A stretch of DNA of 64,000 nucleotides. Source: Christensenellales bacterium (lineage in GTDB: Bacteria > Bacillota > Clostridia > Christensenellales > UBA1431). Shown piece after piece: positions 3,424 to 48,342 of the stretch. Each line of letters begins with the position of its first letter. The stretch's first letter is position 1. The notes under the pieces were generated by a model. It was not told the DNA's origin. It did not search any database and saw only the letters and a list, made by a program, of their open reading frames with translations. A program made the position numbers and the translations under genes. The DNA lies in the NCBI GenBank assembly GCA_040772545.1, contig JAXGXY010000002.1, positions 82,841 through 146,840 on the forward strand, written 5' to 3'.

Positions 3424-4002
3424 ATGGGCAGATTCACTTTCGAAGAGACCGGAATAAACGGCGTATACATCATCGACCCGCCGGTGTTTACGGACGCGCG
3501 CGGGTTTTTCATGGAGTTCTACAACGGCCGCGACTTCACGGAAGCCGGGCTTAAAGTGACCTTCGTACAGGACAATCATTCGCTGTCCGCTAAGGGCGTT
3601 TTGAGGGGGCTCCACCTGCAGGCCGGGCATCCGCAGGGCAAGCTCGTGCGCGTGCTGAGGGGCGAGGTCTTCGACGTGGCGGTTGACGTGCGCGAGGATT
3701 CCCCGACCTTCGGCAAATGGACGGGCATGATCCTTTCCGGGGAAAACAGGCGCCAGCTCTACATCCCGCCGGGGCTGGCGCACGGGTTCCTCGTGCTCTC
3801 CGACGATGCGGAGTTCATGTACAAGTGCACGGATTTCTATTATCCCGAGGACGAATGCGGCATCATTTGGAACGACCCGGACCTGAACATTAAATGGCCG
3901 TTGCCCGAAGGCGGCGCGCCGCTGCTGTCCAAAAAAGACATGGCCTGGGGCACGTTCAAGGATTTCATCGGCCGCGTCGGCGGCCGGGGAGGCCCGGTTT
4001 GA
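3424..4002 (+). CDS. rfbC: dTDP-4-dehydrorhamnose 3,5-epimerase
   Basis: 192 aa cupin. 'FVQDNHSLSAKGVLRGLHLQ', 'KLVRVLRGEVFDVAVD', 'LYIPPGLAHGF' are RmlC motifs. Confidence 0.92.
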   Translation: MGRFTFEETGINGVYIIDPPVFTDARGFFMEFYNGRDFTEAGLKVTFVQDNHSLSAKGVLRGLHLQAGHPQGKLVRVLRGEVFDVAVDVREDSPTFGKWTGMILSGENRRQLYIPPGLAHGFLVLSDDAEFMYKCTDFYYPEDECGIIWNDPDLNIKWPLPEGGAPLLSKKDMAWGTFKDFIGRVGGRGGPV

Positions 4003-22497: not shown

Positions 22498-22809
22498 ATG
22501 AAAGACGGCAAATGCGTAGATTACTGCAAAGTGAATGATATATGCAACGACGAACATTGTCACCATGATTGCAAAAACGAAATTCTTTGTTGTGAGGCAA
22601 AGGTATGCAGATGCGGCGCAGAGCTTTTTTGCACGGTTGCTGAAAGGTTGTCGTGCGAAATAAAGATGGCGAGGAGTTCGCGGGAGCTGGCGTGCTTTAT
22701 CGAATTGAGCAACAGCTTTTTGATCGCCAGTGCGCAGAAAGAAAATGCGATCAGCAGCGTTTTATGTTGTCTCGGCGTGAATGAAGAAAAGATGCTTAAG
22801 TGTCCATAA
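22498..22809 (+). CDS. hypothetical cysteine-rich small protein
   Basis: 103-aa ORF in a visibly AT-richer patch. RBS AAAGGGAG. The N-terminal ~45 aa carry ~11 Cys ('CVDYCKVNDICNDEHCHHDCKNEILCCEAKVCRCGAELFC'). A hairpin terminator follows. Confidence 0.6.
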   Translation: MKDGKCVDYCKVNDICNDEHCHHDCKNEILCCEAKVCRCGAELFCTVAERLSCEIKMARSSRELACFIELSNSFLIASAQKENAISSVLCCLGVNEEKMLKCP

Positions 22810-22826
22810 GCGTTATTATTTAATAA

Positions 22827-22848
22827 GAAGGGAGCAAATGCTCCCTTC
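22827..22848 (+). terminator. hairpin terminator of the Cys-rich gene
   Basis: GAAGGGAGCaaatGCTCCCTTC. Confidence 0.6.
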
Positions 22849-22850
22849 TA

Positions 22851-22979
22851 GGCCGTCGACAAACCCTTCGGGATTTGTCGACGGTTTTCTGTGTGGAAAA
22901 AATGACTTTTTTTCCGCCAATCTGACGCACATGTCGTCAGATTGGATTGAAGGCGGGGGATTGCATCCCCACACCCCCT
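22851..22979 (+). repeat. family-1 modular four-hairpin element, copy 1
   Basis: GTCGACAAAcccttcgggaTTTGTCGAC; GGAAAAAAtgacTTTTTTTCC; CAATCTGACGcacatgtCGTCAGATTG; then GGATTGAAGG and GGGGGattgcatCCCCacaCCCCC. Near-identical to 36136-36266. Confidence 0.85.
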
Positions 22980-23265
22980 GCCAGTCCGGGGAGCATATCC
23001 TCCTTCTTTCCTGTTTTTCTTCGGAGGACCCTTGCCCGTCAGCCCGCCCATAATGTCCGCGCCTATGCACAAGGTGCCGTGTACGGTTTGCCGGGCAGGC
23101 CATATTCGATCGGTTTTCCTGCAGCATTTTGGTTGGCCGCACAAAAAGGTTCTTCTTTAACTCGCAGAACGCTTCATACTACCGGACGACTGGCTCCGGA
23201 TAATCGGCTGGAACCAGAGCCTGTCCGCGTTTCTTTTTCTTTATGCGATATTGTTTTGCGGGTGT

Positions 23266-25016: not shown

Positions 25017-25207
25017 GGGAGTAAGGATTCGAGAGAATCGTACTTCATAGGTCGATAGTGTTTCTGGCAAGCGACATCGGCGAAGGGGTACTGTATGGTT
25101 TTGAGGCCGCTGGGCGTCTTAATGTAATTTAACTATGTTAAGATGGCATTCCTGCCTCAACGGCAGGGAGCGGGCTTCACTCTTGGACGTAAGCACGTCC
25201 CCGGGGT

Positions 25208-25327
25208 ATGGGGGCGGAGGCTCCCATGTTCAGCGACATGTGCGGCGAATCGGTGAAGAAACGGCGCCGGGAGCGGCGTTTCAACCGACCGGGAACCAGA
25301 CAAATCCCGAAGGGATTTGCTCTGGCC
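25208..25327 (-). repeat. family-1 element, degenerate copy in the 16S-23S spacer (inverted orientation)
   Basis: Starts GGGGTATGGGGG. CAGCGACATGTGCGGCG retains the conserved ACATGT loop. Also GAAACGGCGCcgggagCGGCGTTTC, AACCGACC, and CAGACAAATCCCgaaGGGATTTGCTCTG. Confidence 0.65.
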
Positions 25328-25335
25328 CAGCAGAC

Positions 25336-25390: not shown

Positions 25391-25520
25391 CTCGTCGGAG
25401 CAAACTACGCTCCACTCCGAACCCCCTAAGCGCTTTGCGCGGCGGGGATTCGTCGCAACGCTCCGTTGCTCCTCCTTATCCCCACAAAGCTTGCGCTTTG
25501 CGGGGAGGTACTCGGGAAGG
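25391..25520 (+). repeat. family-2 spacer repeat, copy a
   Basis: CGTCGGAGCAAACTACGCTCC..CCCCTAAGCGCTTTGCGCGGCGGGGATTCGTCGC..CGCTCCGTTGCTCCTCC..CACAAAGCTTGCGCTTTGCGGGG. Related to 25605-25715 and, inverted, to 29115-29300. Confidence 0.7.
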
Positions 25521-25604: not shown

Positions 25605-25715
25605 CCGCGTCGGAGCAAACTACGCTCTGCTCCCGCGTCGGAGCGGACTGCGCTTCGCTCGCTTACGGGCAAAGCCCGAAAGCTCGCGCGCTCCGTCGCT
25701 CCTCCTTTAACGTGA
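25605..25715 (+). repeat. family-2 spacer repeat, copy b (first module duplicated)
   Basis: CCGCGTCGGAGCAAACTACGCTCTGCTC followed by CCGCGTCGGAGCGGACTGCGCTTCGCTC, then ...CGCTCCGTCGCTCCTCCTTTAAC. Confidence 0.65.
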
Positions 25716-25764
25716 GAGGCGCTGGGGCCTCACCTTCTGGAAGGCAGAACGTTCCAGGGGGTAT

Positions 25765-25889
25765 GGGGGATCGCAATCCCCCATGTCAATCCAATCTGGC
25801 GACATGCGCGTCAGATTGGGGAAGAAATGTTGCGAAGTAACATTTCAACCGACCAGGAATCCGCATAGGGCCGAAGGCCCGAATGCGGC
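25765..25889 (-). repeat. family-1 element, copy in the 16S-23S spacer (inverted orientation)
   Basis: GGGGGATCGCAATCCCCC, TCAATCC, CAATCTGGCGACATGCGCGTCAGATTG, GAAATGTTGCGAAGTAACATTTC, AACCGACC. This is the reverse complement of the module order in copies 1-3. Confidence 0.75.
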
Positions 25890-26041
25890 AAGGAAAGCCG
25901 GAGGCTTTCCGGAAGAAGAGCACCTTGAAAACCGCATAACGAAGTAAAGCGAGAGCAAGAAAAGGGTAAGATGCGCTTTTAGAAGGAAAGTGCAGCATAC
26001 TGAAAGATTCGCTTGGTAAAACAAGAGTCAAGGGAAGAGAC

Positions 26042-28963
<2,922 letters not shown>

Positions 28964-29114
28964 ACGATTTTCAGGCGCTGCGTTAAGGCGCAAACCTTAC
29001 GTTTCTCGCACAAACGGCGTTATGCGGTTTTGAGGGTGTTTGGTCCTACGGCAATTAATATGCCGGGATGACGCTCGAATACGAGCAGGCACCATTACCC
29101 GCGCCAAAATGGAG

Positions 29115-29300
29115 GCGCAGCGGAGCGTAGTTTGCTACGACGCAGTAGCCCTACCTTCAAAATCCCCGCTAAAACCCTCCCCGGGAAAACCATGCAAAGC
29201 GTAGCTTTGCATGGAAGAGGAGGAGCAACGGAGCGGGGCGAAGAATCCCCGATCGCGAAGCGTAAAGGGGATTCAGAGCAAAGCGAAGTTTGCTACGACG
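29115..29300 (-). repeat. family-2 repeat material in the 23S-5S spacer (inverted)
   Basis: GGAGCGTAGTTTGCTACGACG; CCATGCAAAGCGTAGCTTTGCATGG; GGAGGAGCAACGGAGCG; GGGGCGAAGAATCCCCGATCGCGAAGCGTAAAGGGG. These are reverse complements of the copy-a modules. Confidence 0.65.
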
Positions 29301-29305
29301 AAGTT

Positions 29306-34670: not shown

Positions 34671-36071
34671 ATGATCGAATTCAATCCGAAAACGAATCTT
34701 CTCGAGGAAAACGTGTACGAGTACGAATTACAGGACGTGGAAGAACCCGAGCTTTTCAGGGAGTTCTTCGACTACGGTTCGATCCCCAAAACGGCGTTCA
34801 ACAAGCGCTCCGTGCCCATGGAATGCCCGGAGGAAATCTGGATCACGGACACGACCTTCCGCGACGGGCAGCAGTCCTGCTCGCCTTTCACGCCCGTCCA
34901 GATCGCGCGGCTCTACGAGATGATGCATCGCCTGGGCGGCCCGAAGGGCCTGATCCGCCAATGCGAGTTCTTCATCTATTCCGAAAAGGACCGCGAAGCC
35001 GTGCGCCGCTGCCAGGACTTCGGGTTCGAGTTCCCCCAGATCACCAGCTGGATACGGGCGCACGAAAAGGATTTCCGTCTGGTGAGGGAAATGGGCCTGA
35101 AGGAAACGGGAATCCTGGTGAGCTGCTCGGATTACCATATATTCAAGAAGATGAACCTCACGCGCGCCAAGGCGATGGACAAATACCTCGGGATCGTAAA
35201 GGGGGCGCTGGATAACGGGATCTGCCCGCGCTGCCATTTCGAGGACATCACGAGGGCCGACTTTTACGGCTTCGTGGTCCCCTTCGCACGGGCGCTGATG
35301 GAGCTGTCCAAGCAAAGCGGCATACCGGTCAAGATACGCGCCTGCGACACGCTGGGGTACGGCGTGACCTATCCCGGCGTCTCCCTTCCGCGCTGTGTAC
35401 AGGGGATCGTCTACGGGCTCAGGCGGTTTGCCGAGGTGCCCAGCCGGCAGCTCGAATGGCACGGCCACAACGACTTCTACAAGGTGGTTACCAACGCGGC
35501 CACGGCCTGGCTCTACGGCAGTTCCGCCGTGAACTGCGCGCTGCTCGGGATCGGCGAGCGCACCGGCAACTGCCCGCTCGAGGCGATGGCCATCGAGTAC
35601 GCTTCCCTCCGGGGGACCAACGACGGCATGGACTATTCCGTCATCACGGAGATCGCCGAGTTCTTCGAATACGAACTGGGGTACGAAATCCCGCCGCGCA
35701 CACCGTTCGTGGGGCGCAGCTTCAACACGACGCGCGCGGGCATCCACGCCGACGGCCTTTTAAAGGACGAGGAGATCTACAACATCTTCGACACCGCGAA
35801 GATCCTCAACCGCCCCGCAGGCGTGGCCGTGGACTCGCATTCCGGGCTGGCCGGCATCGCGCACTGGATGAACGGCTACTTCGACCTTAGGGGGGAGCAT
35901 GCGATGGACAAGCGCTCGGAGATGGTGCAGAGGATAAAGGCGCTGGTCGACGCGGAGTACGAAGGCGGACGGACCACGGCGATGGGCGACATGGAACTCG
36001 AGGAGATGGTGCGCAACACCGACGTCGAGGCGTACATCATGCTCTGCCACCACAAGAACAAGACGGCGTGA
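34671..36071 (+). CDS. HMGL-like aldolase: homocitrate / Re-citrate synthase-like (isopropylmalate synthase superfamily)
   Basis: ATG 34671 after GGGTGGGGA. 'ITDTTFRDGQQS' is the DRE-TIM metallolyase motif; also 'WHGHNDFY', 'GIGERTGNCPLE'. No LeuA C-terminal regulatory domain recognised. Confidence 0.7.
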   Translation: MIEFNPKTNLLEENVYEYELQDVEEPELFREFFDYGSIPKTAFNKRSVPMECPEEIWITDTTFRDGQQSCSPFTPVQIARLYEMMHRLGGPKGLIRQCEFFIYSEKDREAVRRCQDFGFEFPQITSWIRAHEKDFRLVREMGLKETGILVSCSDYHIFKKMNLTRAKAMDKYLGIVKGALDNGICPRCHFEDITRADFYGFVVPFARALMELSKQSGIPVKIRACDTLGYGVTYPGVSLPRCVQGIVYGLRRFAEVPSRQLEWHGHNDFYKVVTNAATAWLYGSSAVNCALLGIGERTGNCPLEAMAIEYASLRGTNDGMDYSVITEIAEFFEYELGYEIPPRTPFVGRSFNTTRAGIHADGLLKDEEIYNIFDTAKILNRPAGVAVDSHSGLAGIAHWMNGYFDLRGEHAMDKRSEMVQRIKALVDAEYEGGRTTAMGDMELEEMVRNTDVEAYIMLCHHKNKTA

Positions 36072-36110: not shown

Positions 36111-36135
36111 GGGGCGCCCGTTCAGGGGCGCTTTT
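36111..36135 (+). terminator. terminator after the citrate-synthase-like gene (left copy of a duplicated hairpin)
   Basis: GGGGCGCCCgttcaGGGGCGCTTTT. Confidence 0.65.
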
Positions 36136-36266
36136 GGCCGTCGACAAACCCTTCGGGATTTGTCGACGGTTTTCCGTGTGGTTAATATGCCGCTTTTAGG
36201 CGGCATTTTTCAATCCAATCTGACGCACATGTCGTCAGATTGGATTGAAAGTGGGGGATTGGCATC
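36136..36266 (+). repeat. family-1 modular four-hairpin element, copy 2
   Basis: Hairpins 1 and 3 are identical to copy 1. Hairpin 2 is replaced by ATATGCCGCttttaGGCGGCATTTTT. Followed by GGATTGAAAGTGGGGG. Confidence 0.85.
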
Positions 36267-36291
36267 TTGTTGTAGGCTTTTTTGACAGTCT

Positions 36292-36316
36292 GGGGCGCCC
36301 GTTCGGGGGCGCCTTT
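36292..36316 (+). terminator. right copy of the duplicated terminator hairpin
   Basis: GGGGCGCCCgttcGGGGGCGCCTTTATT, near-identical to 36111-36131. Confidence 0.55.
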
Positions 36317-36451: not shown

Positions 36452-36862
36452 ATGCTCAAGATTCTGATGGGAAAGAAAGGCGTGGGCAAGACCAAACGGA
36501 TCATTCAGATGGCCAACGAGGAATCCGGAGATAACAAGGGAAATTCTGTGTTCGTCGACGATGACAACCGCTACATGTTCGAGATCAAACGGCCTGTCCG
36601 CTTCATCGACGCTTCCGAGTACCGCATCGACGGCGCTCCCATGTTTCTGGGCTTCATCGCGGGGCTTATGGCCAGCGACTACGACCTCGAGACCCTGTAC
36701 ATAGACGGCTTCCTCAAAATCGTGCGCTCCGAAAACCTGGACAGCCTTGTGGACTTCTTCAAACGCCTGGACAGGCTCACAAGCGACCTGAACGTGATCA
36801 TCAGCATCAAGGGGGACCCCCAGACAGTCCCCGAAGCGTTGAAAAAATATCTCATGAACTGA
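36452..36862 (+). CDS. hypothetical protein with Walker-A-like motif
   Basis: ATG 36452 after GGGGAGGG. 'MLKILMGKKGVGKTK' is P-loop-like. 136 aa; no other motif recognised. Confidence 0.5.
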   Translation: MLKILMGKKGVGKTKRIIQMANEESGDNKGNSVFVDDDNRYMFEIKRPVRFIDASEYRIDGAPMFLGFIAGLMASDYDLETLYIDGFLKIVRSENLDSLVDFFKRLDRLTSDLNVIISIKGDPQTVPEALKKYLMN

Positions 36863-40794: not shown

Positions 40795-41175
40795 TCAGCA
40801 GCGTTTTCTCCTTCTTATCCCGGCGTCCTGGACGATGTTGAGCGCCTCGCCGAAGCGCTGGAAATGCACGACCTCTCGCTCCCTGAGGAACAGCAGCGGA
40901 TTGCGCACGTCCGGGTCGGCGGTAAGGCGGATCAGGTGCTCGTACGTCGCGCGCGCCTTCTGCTCTGCGGCCATGTCCTCGGTAAGGTCGGCGACCGGGT
41001 CGCCGGTGCAGGCGACGTAGGAAGCCGTGAAAGGGACGCCGTTCGGGTCGCAGGGGAAGAGCCCGAAGTCGTGCTCGGTGTAGAACCCTTCCATCCCCGA
41101 GGCGCGGATGCCCGCGACCGACGCGCCGCGCATGCACTGGTGGATCATCGTCCCTATCATCTCCCAGTGGGCCAA
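40795..41175 (-). CDS. cotJC: spore coat protein CotJC (manganese-catalase family), 3' segment (codons 66-191) of a split gene
   Basis: 'LAHWEMIGTMIHQ...NGVPFTASYVACTGDPVADLTEDMAAEQKARATYEHLI...FLREREVVHFQRF' aligns with B. subtilis CotJC residues ~66-189 as I recall them. No start codon or RBS of its own. Confidence 0.85.
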   Translation of the reverse strand: MAHWEMIGTMIHQCMRGASVAGIRASGMEGFYTEHDFGLFPCDPNGVPFTASYVACTGDPVADLTEDMAAEQKARATYEHLIRLTADPDVRNPLLFLREREVVHFQRFGEALNIVQDAGIRRRKRC

Positions 41176-42776
41176 TTCTTCGGTGCCGCGTTATTGTCGG
41201 TGAGGATGCGGTCCGGGAGCCTGGGGTACAGCACGAGTTCGAACGCGCCCTTAAATACGCGCGCCCGCCCGTTGCCGCCGCGCACGGCCTTATAATAGTC
41301 TATCCGTTCGACGAGGCTCCTGAGCAGGCTGTTTTTCGACATGACGGAGGGCGCGAGCGCATACGCGGCGGCGATGTCTTCGGCGCGCGCGCGCCGGTCC
41401 CGCAGCGCTGTTTCGCGCGCCCGCGCGGCCTGCAGCTGGCGGCGGAGTTCTGTTTCCTGGCGCCGGAGTTCCTCCGTTTGCTCAAGCAGCGCTTCTTTGC
41501 GTTTTTCAAACGTTTCGGCGTCGTATACGCCCTGTTCGAGCAGGTCGTGCGCGGCGGCGCGCTGCGCCTCGAGGCGCGCGAGGCCTTCCCCGATGCGCCT
41601 GAGCGCCTGCGCGGCCGCCGCTTCGACCGGCGCAGGGCCGGTATCGCCTTTAGCTCCGGCGCGTAGCCTGTACCCCCGCAGCCATGTTTTAAGCGAGCGC
41701 AGCACGGCCGATTCGACGAGGCGCAGTTCCGAGCTCACGTTCGCGCAGGCGGCGTCCGGGCAGACGAGCGCGTCCGGCGCGTTTTTGTACGGCTTCCTGC
41801 ACATGCGCCCGCCGCAGACCCCGCAATAAACGAGGCCGGCGAGCGGGTTTTTCAGGGACCCGCCGCGCGTGCCCCGCGGATGCCCGCCGGACAGGTACTC
41901 CTGCGCCCGGTCCCAGGCTTCGCGGCCGATCAGGGGCGGGTGGAGGCCGTCCACCACGATGCAGCCGCCGTTGCGGGGCCGGCTGACCGCCGCGCCGCCG
42001 TCTTTTGCTCTCTTTACCGCCGGGCGGCCCATGTAGCGTATCTTCCCGGCGTAGACGGGGTTTTTGAGGAGCGGCTGGAGCATGGACGGCGTCCAGCGCG
42101 CGGCCCGCCGCGGCCTGATGCCCAGGTCGTTGAGCCTGCGGGCGAGGCGGGCGACGCCCAGCCGCCCTTCGGCCCCGTCGCCCTTTGTATACAGCTCGAA
42201 GATGAGCTTCACGGCCGGGGCGGCGGCCGGGTCCGGGGCGAGCGTGTAGCCTTTCTGGCCGTCGAGCTTCACGCGGACGTAGCCGAACGGCGCGACGCTG
42301 CCGGTGTACTTCCCCTCCAGGGCGGAGGCGCGCCGGCCGCGCTGGAGCCGGCGGTTGATCGCCCTGTACTCGCGGCGGCTCATGAACAGGCCGAACTCGA
42401 AATACTCCTCGTCGAACTCGTCGTCGGGGTCGTAGGTCTTCGCGGGCGTGACGATCTTCGTGTGGGAGAGGGAGAACGCGCGCGCGATGACGCCCTGGTC
42501 GATCGTGTCGCCGCGCGCGAGACGCTCGATCTCCATCACGAGCACGCCGTCCCACAGGCCGCCTTCCACCTCGGAAAGGAGCCGACGCATCACGGGCCGC
42601 GCTGCGATGGTCTCGCCGGAGACGATCTCGCGGTAGGTTTTGGACACGGGCAACCCCATGCGTTCGGCGAGGGAAACGAGCGCGGCCCGGTGGCGCGCGA
42701 GGGTCTCGCCTTCGCCGCGCGCCTCGGCCTCGGCGTCCGCCCTGGATTTTCGAAGGTAGATGCAGTAGTTTGCCAT
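41157..42776 (-). CDS. large serine recombinase, SprA-like
   Basis: ATG 42776. 'YLRKSRADAE..TL..H...L', 'EIVSGETIAARP', 'VLVMEIERLARGD', 'IVTPAKTYDP', 'FEFGLFMSRREY', Zn-ribbon 'CGVCGGRMCRK...CPDAAC', long coiled coil. 539 aa. The stop codon lies beyond the element edge. The 100-codon N-terminal extension in the ORF track covers a repeat and is rejected. Confidence 0.88.
   Translation of the reverse strand: MANYCIYLRKSRADAEAEARGEGETLARHRAALVSLAERMGLPVSKTYREIVSGETIAARPVMRRLLSEVEGGLWDGVLVMEIERLARGDTIDQGVIARAFSLSHTKIVTPAKTYDPDDEFDEEYFEFGLFMSRREYRAINRRLQRGRRASALEGKYTGSVAPFGYVRVKLDGQKGYTLAPDPAAAPAVKLIFELYTKGDGAEGRLGVARLARRLNDLGIRPRRAARWTPSMLQPLLKNPVYAGKIRYMGRPAVKRAKDGGAAVSRPRNGGCIVVDGLHPPLIGREAWDRAQEYLSGGHPRGTRGGSLKNPLAGLVYCGVCGGRMCRKPYKNAPDALVCPDAACANVSSELRLVESAVLRSLKTWLRGYRLRAGAKGDTGPAPVEAAAAQALRRIGEGLARLEAQRAAAHDLLEQGVYDAETFEKRKEALLEQTEELRRQETELRRQLQAARARETALRDRRARAEDIAAAYALAPSVMSKNSLLRSLVERIDYYKAVRGGNGRARVFKGAFELVLYPRLPDRILTDNNAAPKNWPTGR
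41160..41208. other. left recombination junction (attL-type: B arm + core + P' arm)
   Basis: ...CCCAGTGGGCCAA|TTCTTC|GGTGCCGCGTTATTGTCGGTGAGGAT. The core TTCTTCGGTGCC (41176-41187) matches 48148-48159 at 11/12 positions. Confidence 0.7.
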
Positions 42777-42843
42777 CGTTTCACCGCCCGCTAAGCTTTG
42801 TATATTTGTATTTCGCGGGGGCGGCGGATATGGCGGGTACGAT

Positions 42844-42980
42844 GCCGACAAACCTGTGGTTTGTCGGCAATTTTCCGGCAGGTTGAAACGCGCTTTAAGG
42901 CGCGTTTCTTTGCCGATCCTGACGCACATGTCACCAGGATCGGATTGAAGCTCAGGGGGCTTCGGCCCCCCTGAACCCCC
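42844..42980 (+). repeat. family-1 modular four-hairpin element, copy 3 (divergent, with compensatory stem changes)
   Basis: GCCGACAAACCtgtGGTTTGTCGGC; GAAACGCGCtttaaGGCGCGTTTC; CGATCCTGacgcacatgtcacCAGGATCG; GGATTGAAGC; GGGGGCttcgGCCCCCCTGAACCCCC. Confidence 0.8.
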
Positions 42981-43078
42981 AGGGGAAGTTACCGTTTGCC
43001 ATGTTGCCCGGGGTGAAAGGCTGACGATTACCGGTCGGACACATTTGAATAAACCTTCCGTTGCATAAAAACGCACAC

Positions 43079-48034: not shown

Positions 48035-48068
48035 AGCCCCGCGGGCGGTGTCTGCGGGGCTTTCTATT
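48035..48068 (+). terminator. terminator after the SleB-like gene
   Basis: AGCCCCGCgggcggtgtctGCGGGGCTTTCTATT. Confidence 0.65.
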
Positions 48069-48126
48069 GCCGATAAGGCTTATTAGTGATGAATGCTGTA
48101 TAATACCGGTCTTCCCCCTTATTTCC

Positions 48127-48175
48127 CCGACAATAATGCGGTACCGGTTCTTCTGTGCCTATGTCGGTGAGGATC
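48127..48175. other. right recombination junction (attR-type: P arm + core + B' arm)
   Basis: CCGACAATAATGCGGTACCGG|TTCTTC|TGTGCCTATGTCGGTGAGGAT. The P arm is the inverted repeat of 41182-41200. Confidence 0.7.
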
Positions 48176-48342
48176 GACTTGCAGGCGTCGTTGGGCATGG
48201 AATAGCGCTGGTTGAGGTAGCGGATGCCCGCGGCGAGCTCGCTGTCGGGGCCGCCGTACTGGGCGAGGAGCGCCTTGGCCATGCGCAGGTCGGGTTTCCG
48301 GATCCGTACGGGGAACTGAAGCTTTTTCTCATATATCCACAT
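48148..48342 (-). CDS. cotJC: spore coat protein CotJC, 5' segment (codons 1-65) of a split gene
   Basis: RBS AAGGAGG. 'MWIYEKKLQFPVRIRKPDLRMAKALLAQYGGPDSELAAGIRYLNQRYSMPNDACKSILTDIGTEE' is the CotJC/Mn-catalase N-terminus. As integrated, the frame reads 27 unrelated codons into the element and stops at 48064. Confidence 0.88.

Follow-up and report, generated by a model that had tools for sequence, protein, structure and literature searches.

Described systems and the family-1 repeat

Robart, Seo and Zimmerly reportedly described in 2007 how class C group II introns insert just 3′ of terminator stem-loops, in a fixed orientation and at sites whose sequences vary. The short repeat analysed here, family-1, which was found in a 64-kb stretch of DNA (the whole of which is referred to as the window), likewise inserts 3′ of a predicted terminator stem-loop in a fixed orientation. 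However, class C introns are ribozymes of at least several hundred nt, with a 5′ GUGYG, domains V and VI and in most cases an ORF for a reverse transcriptase, and insert by reverse splicing without target duplication. Family-1, in contrast, is 170 nt long and has no ORF, its target hairpin is duplicated, and Rfam gave no intron match for it, whether the gathering threshold was applied or E values up to 10 were allowed. Class C intron insertion at terminators is also a topic of PMC8643678.

SPRITE, according to the available portion of PMC3049150, is a single 18-bp duplex with a long U-rich tract. It is, like family-1, a small structured repeat that encodes no protein and combines a U-rich tract with a terminator-like hairpin; both are enriched just past gene 3′ ends and presumed to be mobilised in trans. 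Family-1, however, has four hairpins and a hairpin-length target duplication, whereas duplication of a host hairpin is not described for SPRITE in that portion of the text. The BOX and RUP repeats differ from family-1 in possessing terminal inverted repeats.

Direct copies of a whole short target unit around an insert, as in family-1, are also produced by Cas1-Cas2 and by casposons, through staggered attacks at both borders of a short, often palindromic target and subsequent gap filling (PMC4872114, PMC6895254, PMC6614799). Unlike in family-1, the length of that duplication is fixed, the site is defined by sequence, and the inserts are either spacers or casposons with terminal inverted repeats. 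Family-1 loci also differ from a CRISPR array with its constant repeats and 25-50-nt spacers: there are two repeats per locus around a conserved insert of 137-170 nt, and from one locus to the next the repeats vary in length.

Long, direct target repeats of variable length, a property shared by family-1, are known from IS1634 and IS1549, where they span 8-514 bp and have no accepted mechanism (PMC2266710). In contrast to family-1, these are insertion sequences of the DDE type that move autonomously and carry terminal inverted repeats, and their repeat lengths are not reported to match a hairpin or terminator. The REP, BIME and REPIN sequences are intergenic hairpins after genes, mobilised by a single-copy RAYT transposase (Y1 HUH) encoded elsewhere, and some of the REP-targeting insertion sequences IS1397, ISKpn1, ISPpu9 and ISPpu10 recognise a stem-loop target (PMC12288879, bioRxiv 10.64898/2026.03.19.712850). 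REPs, however, are family-conserved repeated hairpins of 20-40 nt, often in inverted doublets, and the insertion sequences that target them insert inside the conserved palindrome with a short duplication or none, whereas the target hairpins of family-1 are unrelated in sequence and are duplicated whole. Nor is the family-1 duplication a short target-site duplication of fixed length, as it measures 17-27 nt and tracks the hairpin. No description of terminator-hairpin-length target duplications was found in the literature searched, the coverage of which was incomplete, so that this is absence of evidence only. Family-1 appears to be a small non-autonomous bacterial repeat whose insertion footprint is undescribed.

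The element and its copies

A preliminary description of the window counted two copies of the element. A covariance model built from nine family-1 copies raises this count to five, two of which lie antisense in rRNA spacers. The members, their flanking target copies and the hairpins of copy 2 are as follows.

22827-22849, + strand: left target copy of copy 1, GAAGGGAGCAAATGCTCCCTTCT, 18 nt past the stop codon of the upstream Cys-rich ORF
22850-22987, + strand: family-1 copy 1, decayed (144.8 bits, covariance model)
22988-23007, + strand: right target copy of copy 1, degenerate, GGGGAGCATATCCTCCTTCT (alignment score 13)
25176-25329, − strand: diverged member, antisense in the 16S-tRNA spacer (46 bits, E = 1e-13)
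25731-25891, − strand: diverged member, antisense in the tRNA-23S spacer (127 bits, covariance model)
36111-36135, + strand: left target copy of copy 2, GGGGCGCCCGTTCAGGGGCGCTTTT, the predicted terminator stem-loop and TTTT of the upstream HMGL-like synthase gene
36136-36291, + strand: family-1 copy 2, 156 nt, four hairpins (171.5 bits, covariance model)
36138-36174, + strand: hairpin A of copy 2, terminator-like, CCGTCGACAAACCC-TTC-GGGATTTGTCGACGG followed by TTTTC
36187-36206, + strand: middle hairpin of copy 2, terminator-like, ATGCCGC-TTTTAG-GCGGCAT followed by a T-run
36209-36249, + strand: hairpin B of copy 2, 17-bp stem, with the loop motif CGCACATGTCG kept in all subfamilies
36292-36316, + strand: right target copy of copy 2, GGGGCGCCCGTTCGGGGGCGCCTTT, running on into a T-rich tail
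42838-43006, + strand: diverged member of the second subfamily (81 bits, E = 4e-25)

The element is 137-170 nt long across copies, rather than the ~130-160 bp initially given, with a consensus of 170 nt (TAGGCCGTCGAC...GGCTTTTTTGACAGTCTG). It is a non-coding, multicopy and highly structured array of four hairpins, with a T-run behind hairpin A and another behind the middle hairpin, and the regions of copy 2 and copy 1 have fold z-scores of −8.3 and −8.8, respectively, relative to shuffled sequence. The 5′ end reads (T)AGGCC... and the 3′ end ...GACAGTCTG, and in alignments of the young-subfamily copies both ends are constant. Across the element no ORF was found except frames open by chance. 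A full copy lacks terminal inverted repeats: its inverted repeats are all local hairpins, and none of them pairs the first 20 nt with the last 20. Rfam gave no match at the gathering threshold for the window, nor at E values up to 10 for two copies, and no promoter was found within the element. The lack of an Rfam match, an ORF and terminal inverted repeats upholds the earlier view that family-1 is unlike both class C group II introns and insertion sequences.

Copy 2 reads GGCC...GACAGTCT (36136-36291), and its left flank sits 40 nt past the stop codon at 36071. Hairpin A begins 2 nt from the 5′ end of this copy, and hairpin 4 is partly deleted relative to the orthologous copy in L006, a metagenomic contig described below. 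Copies 1 and 2 share an identical 39-nt 5′ module and an identical 35-nt hairpin-B module. The middle hairpin, which is missing from the copy in L005 as well, has been lost from copy 1, together with 16 nt of the 3′ tail, and this copy lies ~280 nt upstream of a promoter-like site of the rRNA operon. The member at 25731-25891 has other sequences in place of hairpin A and of the middle hairpin, and these also pair. The member at 42838-43006 preserves all four hairpins through compensatory changes. Since the two rRNA-spacer copies are antisense, the pre-rRNA would contain the reverse complements of both.

Compensatory changes were found in 19 of the 39 stem pairs of the family, including 7 of the 16 pairs of hairpin A between subfamilies, while the loop motifs are fixed. 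Stem cells are paired in 95.9% of cases as against 30-56% in shifted controls, in an alignment that is itself fitted to the model. In the diverged members, stems are swapped for other sequences with pairing kept, and the unpaired motifs, GGUUGAAA and CGCACAUGUCG among them, persist. Because the stems covary while the unpaired motifs stay, the hairpins are judged from these alignments to be under constraint, either as DNA or as RNA; covarying stems with fixed loops are the pattern expected of hairpins that are read by a protein. On the sense strand, G-T cells outnumber A-C cells by 11 to 5, a weak excess in a count that is biased by the model-fitted alignment. A UUCG tetraloop was considered as a sign of RNA and dropped, since the same letters are equally readable as a C(UUC)G triloop.

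Outside the window, an exact-motif scan with one genome per species returned a single copy (L001), located after groEL in a Ruminococcaceae MAG and ending at the contig end. A metagenome scan added four complete copies on long contigs (L004-L007), of which L006 is the orthologue of window copy 2. Two more diverged loci, L008/L009 and L010, were recovered with the six-frame translation of the consensus as a protein query. A full HMMER search of representative proteins gave one true match, P0246, whose flank fits the copy-2/L006 locus; the other four matches were rejected as unrelated repetitive proteins. Viral contigs, plasmids and phages gave no match to family-1 by exact-match scan and BLAST. 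A longer element with family-1 ends was found neither in the window nor at the loci, and the genome, metagenome and viral scans and the plasmid and phage BLAST searches returned short copies or nothing. With so few matches in very large collections, family-1 seems to be restricted to a small clade of uncultured Clostridia. Source metagenomes for this lineage are Ga0334896, Ga0334900, Ga0334901, 3300062814 and 3300060680, together with ERZ27252294 and ERZ27252304.

The JGI contig L006 is nearly identical to the window at the DNA level. The two orthologous copies (36134-36292 in the window, 541-710 in L006) nevertheless differ by a block change before hairpin B (TCAATCC vs TTCCGCC) and in hairpin 4, where the window copy lacks 11 nt and has substitutions beside the gap; these block differences suggest gene conversion between copies or rapid decay. 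For the window synthase (34671-36068), the closest protein among 5.8 billion sequences is only 88% identical, showing that the organism of the window is poorly represented in public protein data.

The genes flanking the copies are housekeeping genes, and no transposase lies within ~5 kb of the copies, which fits mobilisation in trans. Beside copy 1 lies a 103-aa Cys-rich ORF (22498-22809), and beside copy 2 a 136-aa ORF (36452-36862, MLKILMGKKGVGKTKR...), neither of which has a Pfam match; the place of the latter between the synthase gene and thrC is conserved in relatives. Elsewhere in the window, a Mn-catalase/cotJC-like gene is split, with its C-terminal part at 40798-41175 (−) and its N-terminal part (MWIYEKKLQFPV...RYLNQRY) near 48050-48240 (−). 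The ~6.9 kb between the halves carry first a gene for a 539-aa large serine recombinase (41160-42776, −) as well as ABC-transporter-like genes, and look like a skin-type element interrupting a sporulation gene. The diverged family-1 member at 42838-43006 lies inside this intervening DNA, 62 nt upstream of the recombinase gene. Another family of short repeats, unrelated to family-1 and made of units resembling CGTCGGAGCAAACTACGCTCC, occurs in rRNA spacers and intergenic regions of related contigs; it is present in the window at 25393-25418, 25608-25661, 29106-29146 and 29264-29304, as well as in L012 (2040-2100) and L013 (3790-3880), and often adjoins family-1 copies.

Flanking hairpins and empty sites

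All four flank strings quoted in the preliminary description were located at the positions given for them. The flanks of copy 2 adjoin the element without a gap and agree with each other in 23 of their 25 nt, and those of copy 1 match in 17 of 20 columns of a local alignment, with two mismatches and one gap. Local alignment of the 45 nt on either side of each copy gave same-locus scores of 13 and 20 for window copies 1 and 2, 25 for L004, 11 for L005, 20 for L006, 24 for L007, 17 for L008 and 11 for L010. Cross-locus pairings scored 4-11, as against 11-25 within loci, showing that the flanking palindromes are locus-specific. When the window was sampled 20,000 times at random, with the two flanks equally far apart, a score of at least 13 occurred at a frequency of 0.007, at least 17 at 0.0007 and at least 20 at 0.0002, and a score of at least 24 never occurred. 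At the three diverged window copies, flank alignment gave no duplication above background, which may reflect either decay or a different insertion mode of older subfamilies.

Altogether, seven independent loci (two of them in the window) each carry their own hairpin pair abutting the element ends, the pairs of three of them (copy 1, L005 and L010) being degenerate. At every locus, the right hairpin copy begins 0-1 nt after the last base of the element (...CTG) and the left copy ends 0-3 nt before GGCC, and the left junction in all loci consists of the hairpin, 0-4 T and (A)GGCC, the usual A being missing at one locus. The duplication is 17-27 nt long, a length that is not fixed and follows the size of the hairpin. 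It can take in 1-4 T of the T-tract, which at the left hairpin copy has often been lost to the element. In L004 the duplicated hairpin is GGCGGCCGTCCTTGGACGGCCGCC(T), identical in both copies; in L007 it is GGAAAGGCGCGGC[G/A]ACGCGCCTTTCC, 26 nt; and in L008 it is GAACGCGCC.C.CGG.GCGTTTT, with identity at 20 of 23 positions. The loops of both copies share the same orientation, i.e., the duplication is direct. In the well-preserved pairs (copy 2, L006, L007, L008 and L011), the mismatches between left and right are all transitions (A/G or C/T); transversions occur only in the decayed copy-1 pair, and the sites are too few to interpret.

The orientation of family-1 is that of the upstream gene at 8 of 8 loci, a T-tract stands behind the right hairpin copy in all eight, and the target hairpins lie 18-73 nt past stop codons, L004 and L005 being located between convergent genes. 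As GC-rich stem-loops with a T-tract soon after a stop codon, the flanking hairpins have the features of intrinsic terminators and are predicted to be intrinsic (Rho-independent) terminators, of which a simple consensus terminator scan scored only a part. When the window and L001-L007 (~114 kb) were scanned for duplicated hairpins at most 8 kb apart, only family-1 copies were returned, apart from tandem and coding repeats; in the scanned DNA, the arrangement of a hairpin on either side of an insert is specific to family-1. The same scan brought up a ~170-nt GC-rich non-coding tandem duplication in L007 (2250-2560) with the hairpin TCCACGCAAAGC...GCTTTGCGTGGA in it; this is an ordinary tandem repeat, with no insert between hairpins.

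Filled and empty alleles were found at the HlyIII locus, in the spacer between HlyIII and spoIIID. Two ENA contigs, L011 and L012, encode an identical HlyIII protein (P0123). L011 has a hairpin on either side of the element, whereas L012 has one hairpin and no element, AAAACGCGCC-GTAC-GGCGCGTTTTTTTT, or as a whole AAAACGCGCCGTACGGCGCGTTTTTTTT. L008, whose HlyIII is 99% identical to this protein, is also filled. The insertion is thus polymorphic at this locus. The empty-site comparison that the preliminary description named as a check on tandem terminators has therefore returned a single hairpin, showing that the flanking hairpins are not pre-existing tandem terminators. A separate observation concerns L013 (HlyIII identity 85%), where a truncated copy resembling the second subfamily (3683-3806) lies 15 nt past the HlyIII stop codon, with no upstream hairpin and with other repeats downstream; insertions have therefore struck the HlyIII spacer repeatedly, and the hairpin rule is not universal.

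In L004, the reconstructed target is GACACAAAAAA-GGCGGCCGTCCTTGGACGGCCGCC-TTTTTTGTGTC, a perfect 46-nt palindrome and predicted bidirectional terminator between convergent genes. Only its 24-25-nt GC core is duplicated, with the A-tract present only at the left hairpin copy and the T-tract only at the right, which is the outcome predicted if a single original hairpin was duplicated. The copy-2 locus has the same gene order in two related species (protein identity 88% and 85%; loci L002 and L003), with one terminator and no element. The duplicated hairpin is therefore derived from the target and not from the element, as had been claimed, a conclusion borne out by the L012 empty site, the split terminator of L004 and L002/L003, and the boundaries of the duplication fall at the stem feet. 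The further proposal of insertion at intrinsic terminators with an unusually long duplication gains support from L012 and from five further independent loci, all of which carry their own hairpin pair, as the suggested check on other copies had asked; a long duplication is confirmed, but its size of ~20 nt is corrected to 17-27 nt by the flank alignments.

Mechanism of insertion and its implications

We lean, if only slightly, towards a mechanism in which family-1 is a non-autonomous element mobilised in trans by an enzyme that joins it to both feet of the terminator stem, with gap repair duplicating the stem-loop. Such an enzyme, encoded elsewhere in the genome, would recognise the GC stem-loop and T-tract as a structure and would attach each end of the element to a different DNA strand, at opposite stem feet. 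The 5′ end of the element lands 0-4 nt into the T-tract, and its 3′ end meets the GC stem at the 5′ foot. The stagger would equal the length of the stem-loop (17-27 nt), and gap repair would copy the whole stem-loop to leave a hairpin on each side of the element. Joining at staggered positions followed by gap filling is suggested by the direct duplication with both loops in the same orientation, and, since the stagger equals the stem-loop, it would be set by the target structure rather than by a fixed ruler. We infer the staggered-joining chemistry, the recognition of structure rather than sequence, and the existence and type of the enzyme; the strand-transfer geometry is not readable from the insertion product.

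In L004, the cuts lie at the boundary of the GC stem and the A/T tracts, whereas the 22-bp palindrome arm as a whole has its base further out. Simple cruciform-base cutting therefore does not fit, and the T-tract or another cue would also be read; these cut positions suggest that stem and T-tract are read together. A cruciform resolved into hairpin-capped ends was rejected, as it would invert one loop, whereas both loops have the same orientation. No candidate for the mobilising enzyme was found in the window or in the ~10-kb loci. The large serine recombinase at 41160-42776 was considered for this role and set aside, since it belongs to the element between the cotJC halves, since the other loci have no gene of this kind nearby, and since strand exchange by serine recombinases takes place at a 2-bp core and gives no long duplications.

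A more far-reaching version is put forward tentatively, as a possibility that we rather doubt: family-1 could be the footprint of an undescribed integration machinery that reads the shape of the target, an extruded or single-stranded stem-loop with its T-tract, instead of a sequence, and joins at both stem feet, so that the hairpin itself measures the duplication. If this is true, any intrinsic terminator would be a safe landing site, with a terminator regenerated on either side of the insert.

Several other origins have been weighed against joining at both stem feet. That the element merely lies between pre-existing tandem terminators, or between hairpins alike by chance, is extremely improbable: tandem terminators do occur, and the pairs of copy 1, L005 and L010 (scores 11-13) are weak when taken alone, but the L012 empty allele has a single hairpin, the symmetric terminator of L004 is split, a single terminator is present at the related loci L002 and L003, the repeats adjoin the ends of the element in every case, and same-locus scores of 17-25 stand against a cross-locus maximum of 11 and a random frequency of at most 0.0007. 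Replication template switching without a dedicated enzyme, with two switches around a donor copy, seems unlikely. Here, a strand past the terminator hairpin would dissociate and re-prime by microhomology at a donor copy, copy the element until it stalled at the donor's flanking hairpin, return to the T-tract and recopy the target hairpin. Microhomology in the T-tract would give the variable number of T (0-4) at the left junction and the one locus without the usual A; the 3′ end of the element, at a hairpin foot, would be a natural stall site; most target stems start with G, beside the terminal G of the element; and there are neither terminal inverted repeats nor a transposase. However, one and the same 170-nt sequence would have had to undergo two precise switches on seven or more occasions, while no other sequence in the ~114 kb scanned lies between duplicated hairpins. 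The element's own hairpins should also cause internal switches and ragged ends, whereas the ends of the young copies are constant, and the covarying stems with fixed loops point to recognition by a factor. The preliminary description offered as an alternative a copy-out mechanism primed on the hairpin, which the findings neither favour nor contradict.

An RNA-mediated route, in which a 3′-UTR transcript is reverse-transcribed at a nick beside the terminator with a second nick beyond the hairpin, we consider quite unlikely. It would account for the strict agreement with the orientation of the upstream gene (8 of 8 loci) and for insertion just 3′ of a terminator stem, as with class C group II introns; the stems covary, and target-primed retroelements give variable-length duplications. 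The 11 to 5 ratio of G-T to A-C cells on the sense strand also points this way, although this excess is weak and biased by the model-fitted alignment. The element has no promoter of its own, however, no reverse transcriptase, ribozyme or group II intron domain was found in or near any copy, and a read-through transcript would bring along donor flanks, none of which are seen at the new sites. Very unlikely, finally, is a Cas1-type integrase (a casposase or off-target Cas1-Cas2) that takes terminator hairpins as pseudo-repeats and the element as a spacer, a reading that is a special case of staggered joining at the stem feet. The geometry of its product, repeat-insert-repeat, is the same, as Cas1-Cas2 attacks both borders of the often palindromic CRISPR repeat, which gap repair then duplicates (PMC4872114, PMC6895254), and casposases act likewise on a 14-15-bp target (PMC6614799). 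Known duplications of this type, however, have a length fixed by a ruler or motifs, in contrast to the 17-27 nt that vary with the hairpin here; the insert is a conserved, structured 170-nt element without casposon terminal inverted repeats rather than a 30-40-nt spacer, and the parts of the window and loci that were covered showed no cas genes.

In genome annotation, duplicated terminators and hairpin arrays like those of family-1 can be misread as sRNA genes or as terminators in tandem. Family-1 is young enough in its lineage to show both filled and empty alleles. A duplication length set by the hairpin would show that bacterial integration can measure structure, with no fixed protein ruler, and would link transposon biology with the repeat duplication of CRISPR adaptation. 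Terminators are abundant non-coding sites, and an element that rebuilds a terminator on both sides would do little harm to its neighbours; such benign landing bears on the persistence of selfish repeats and may offer a route to inserting DNA at benign sites.
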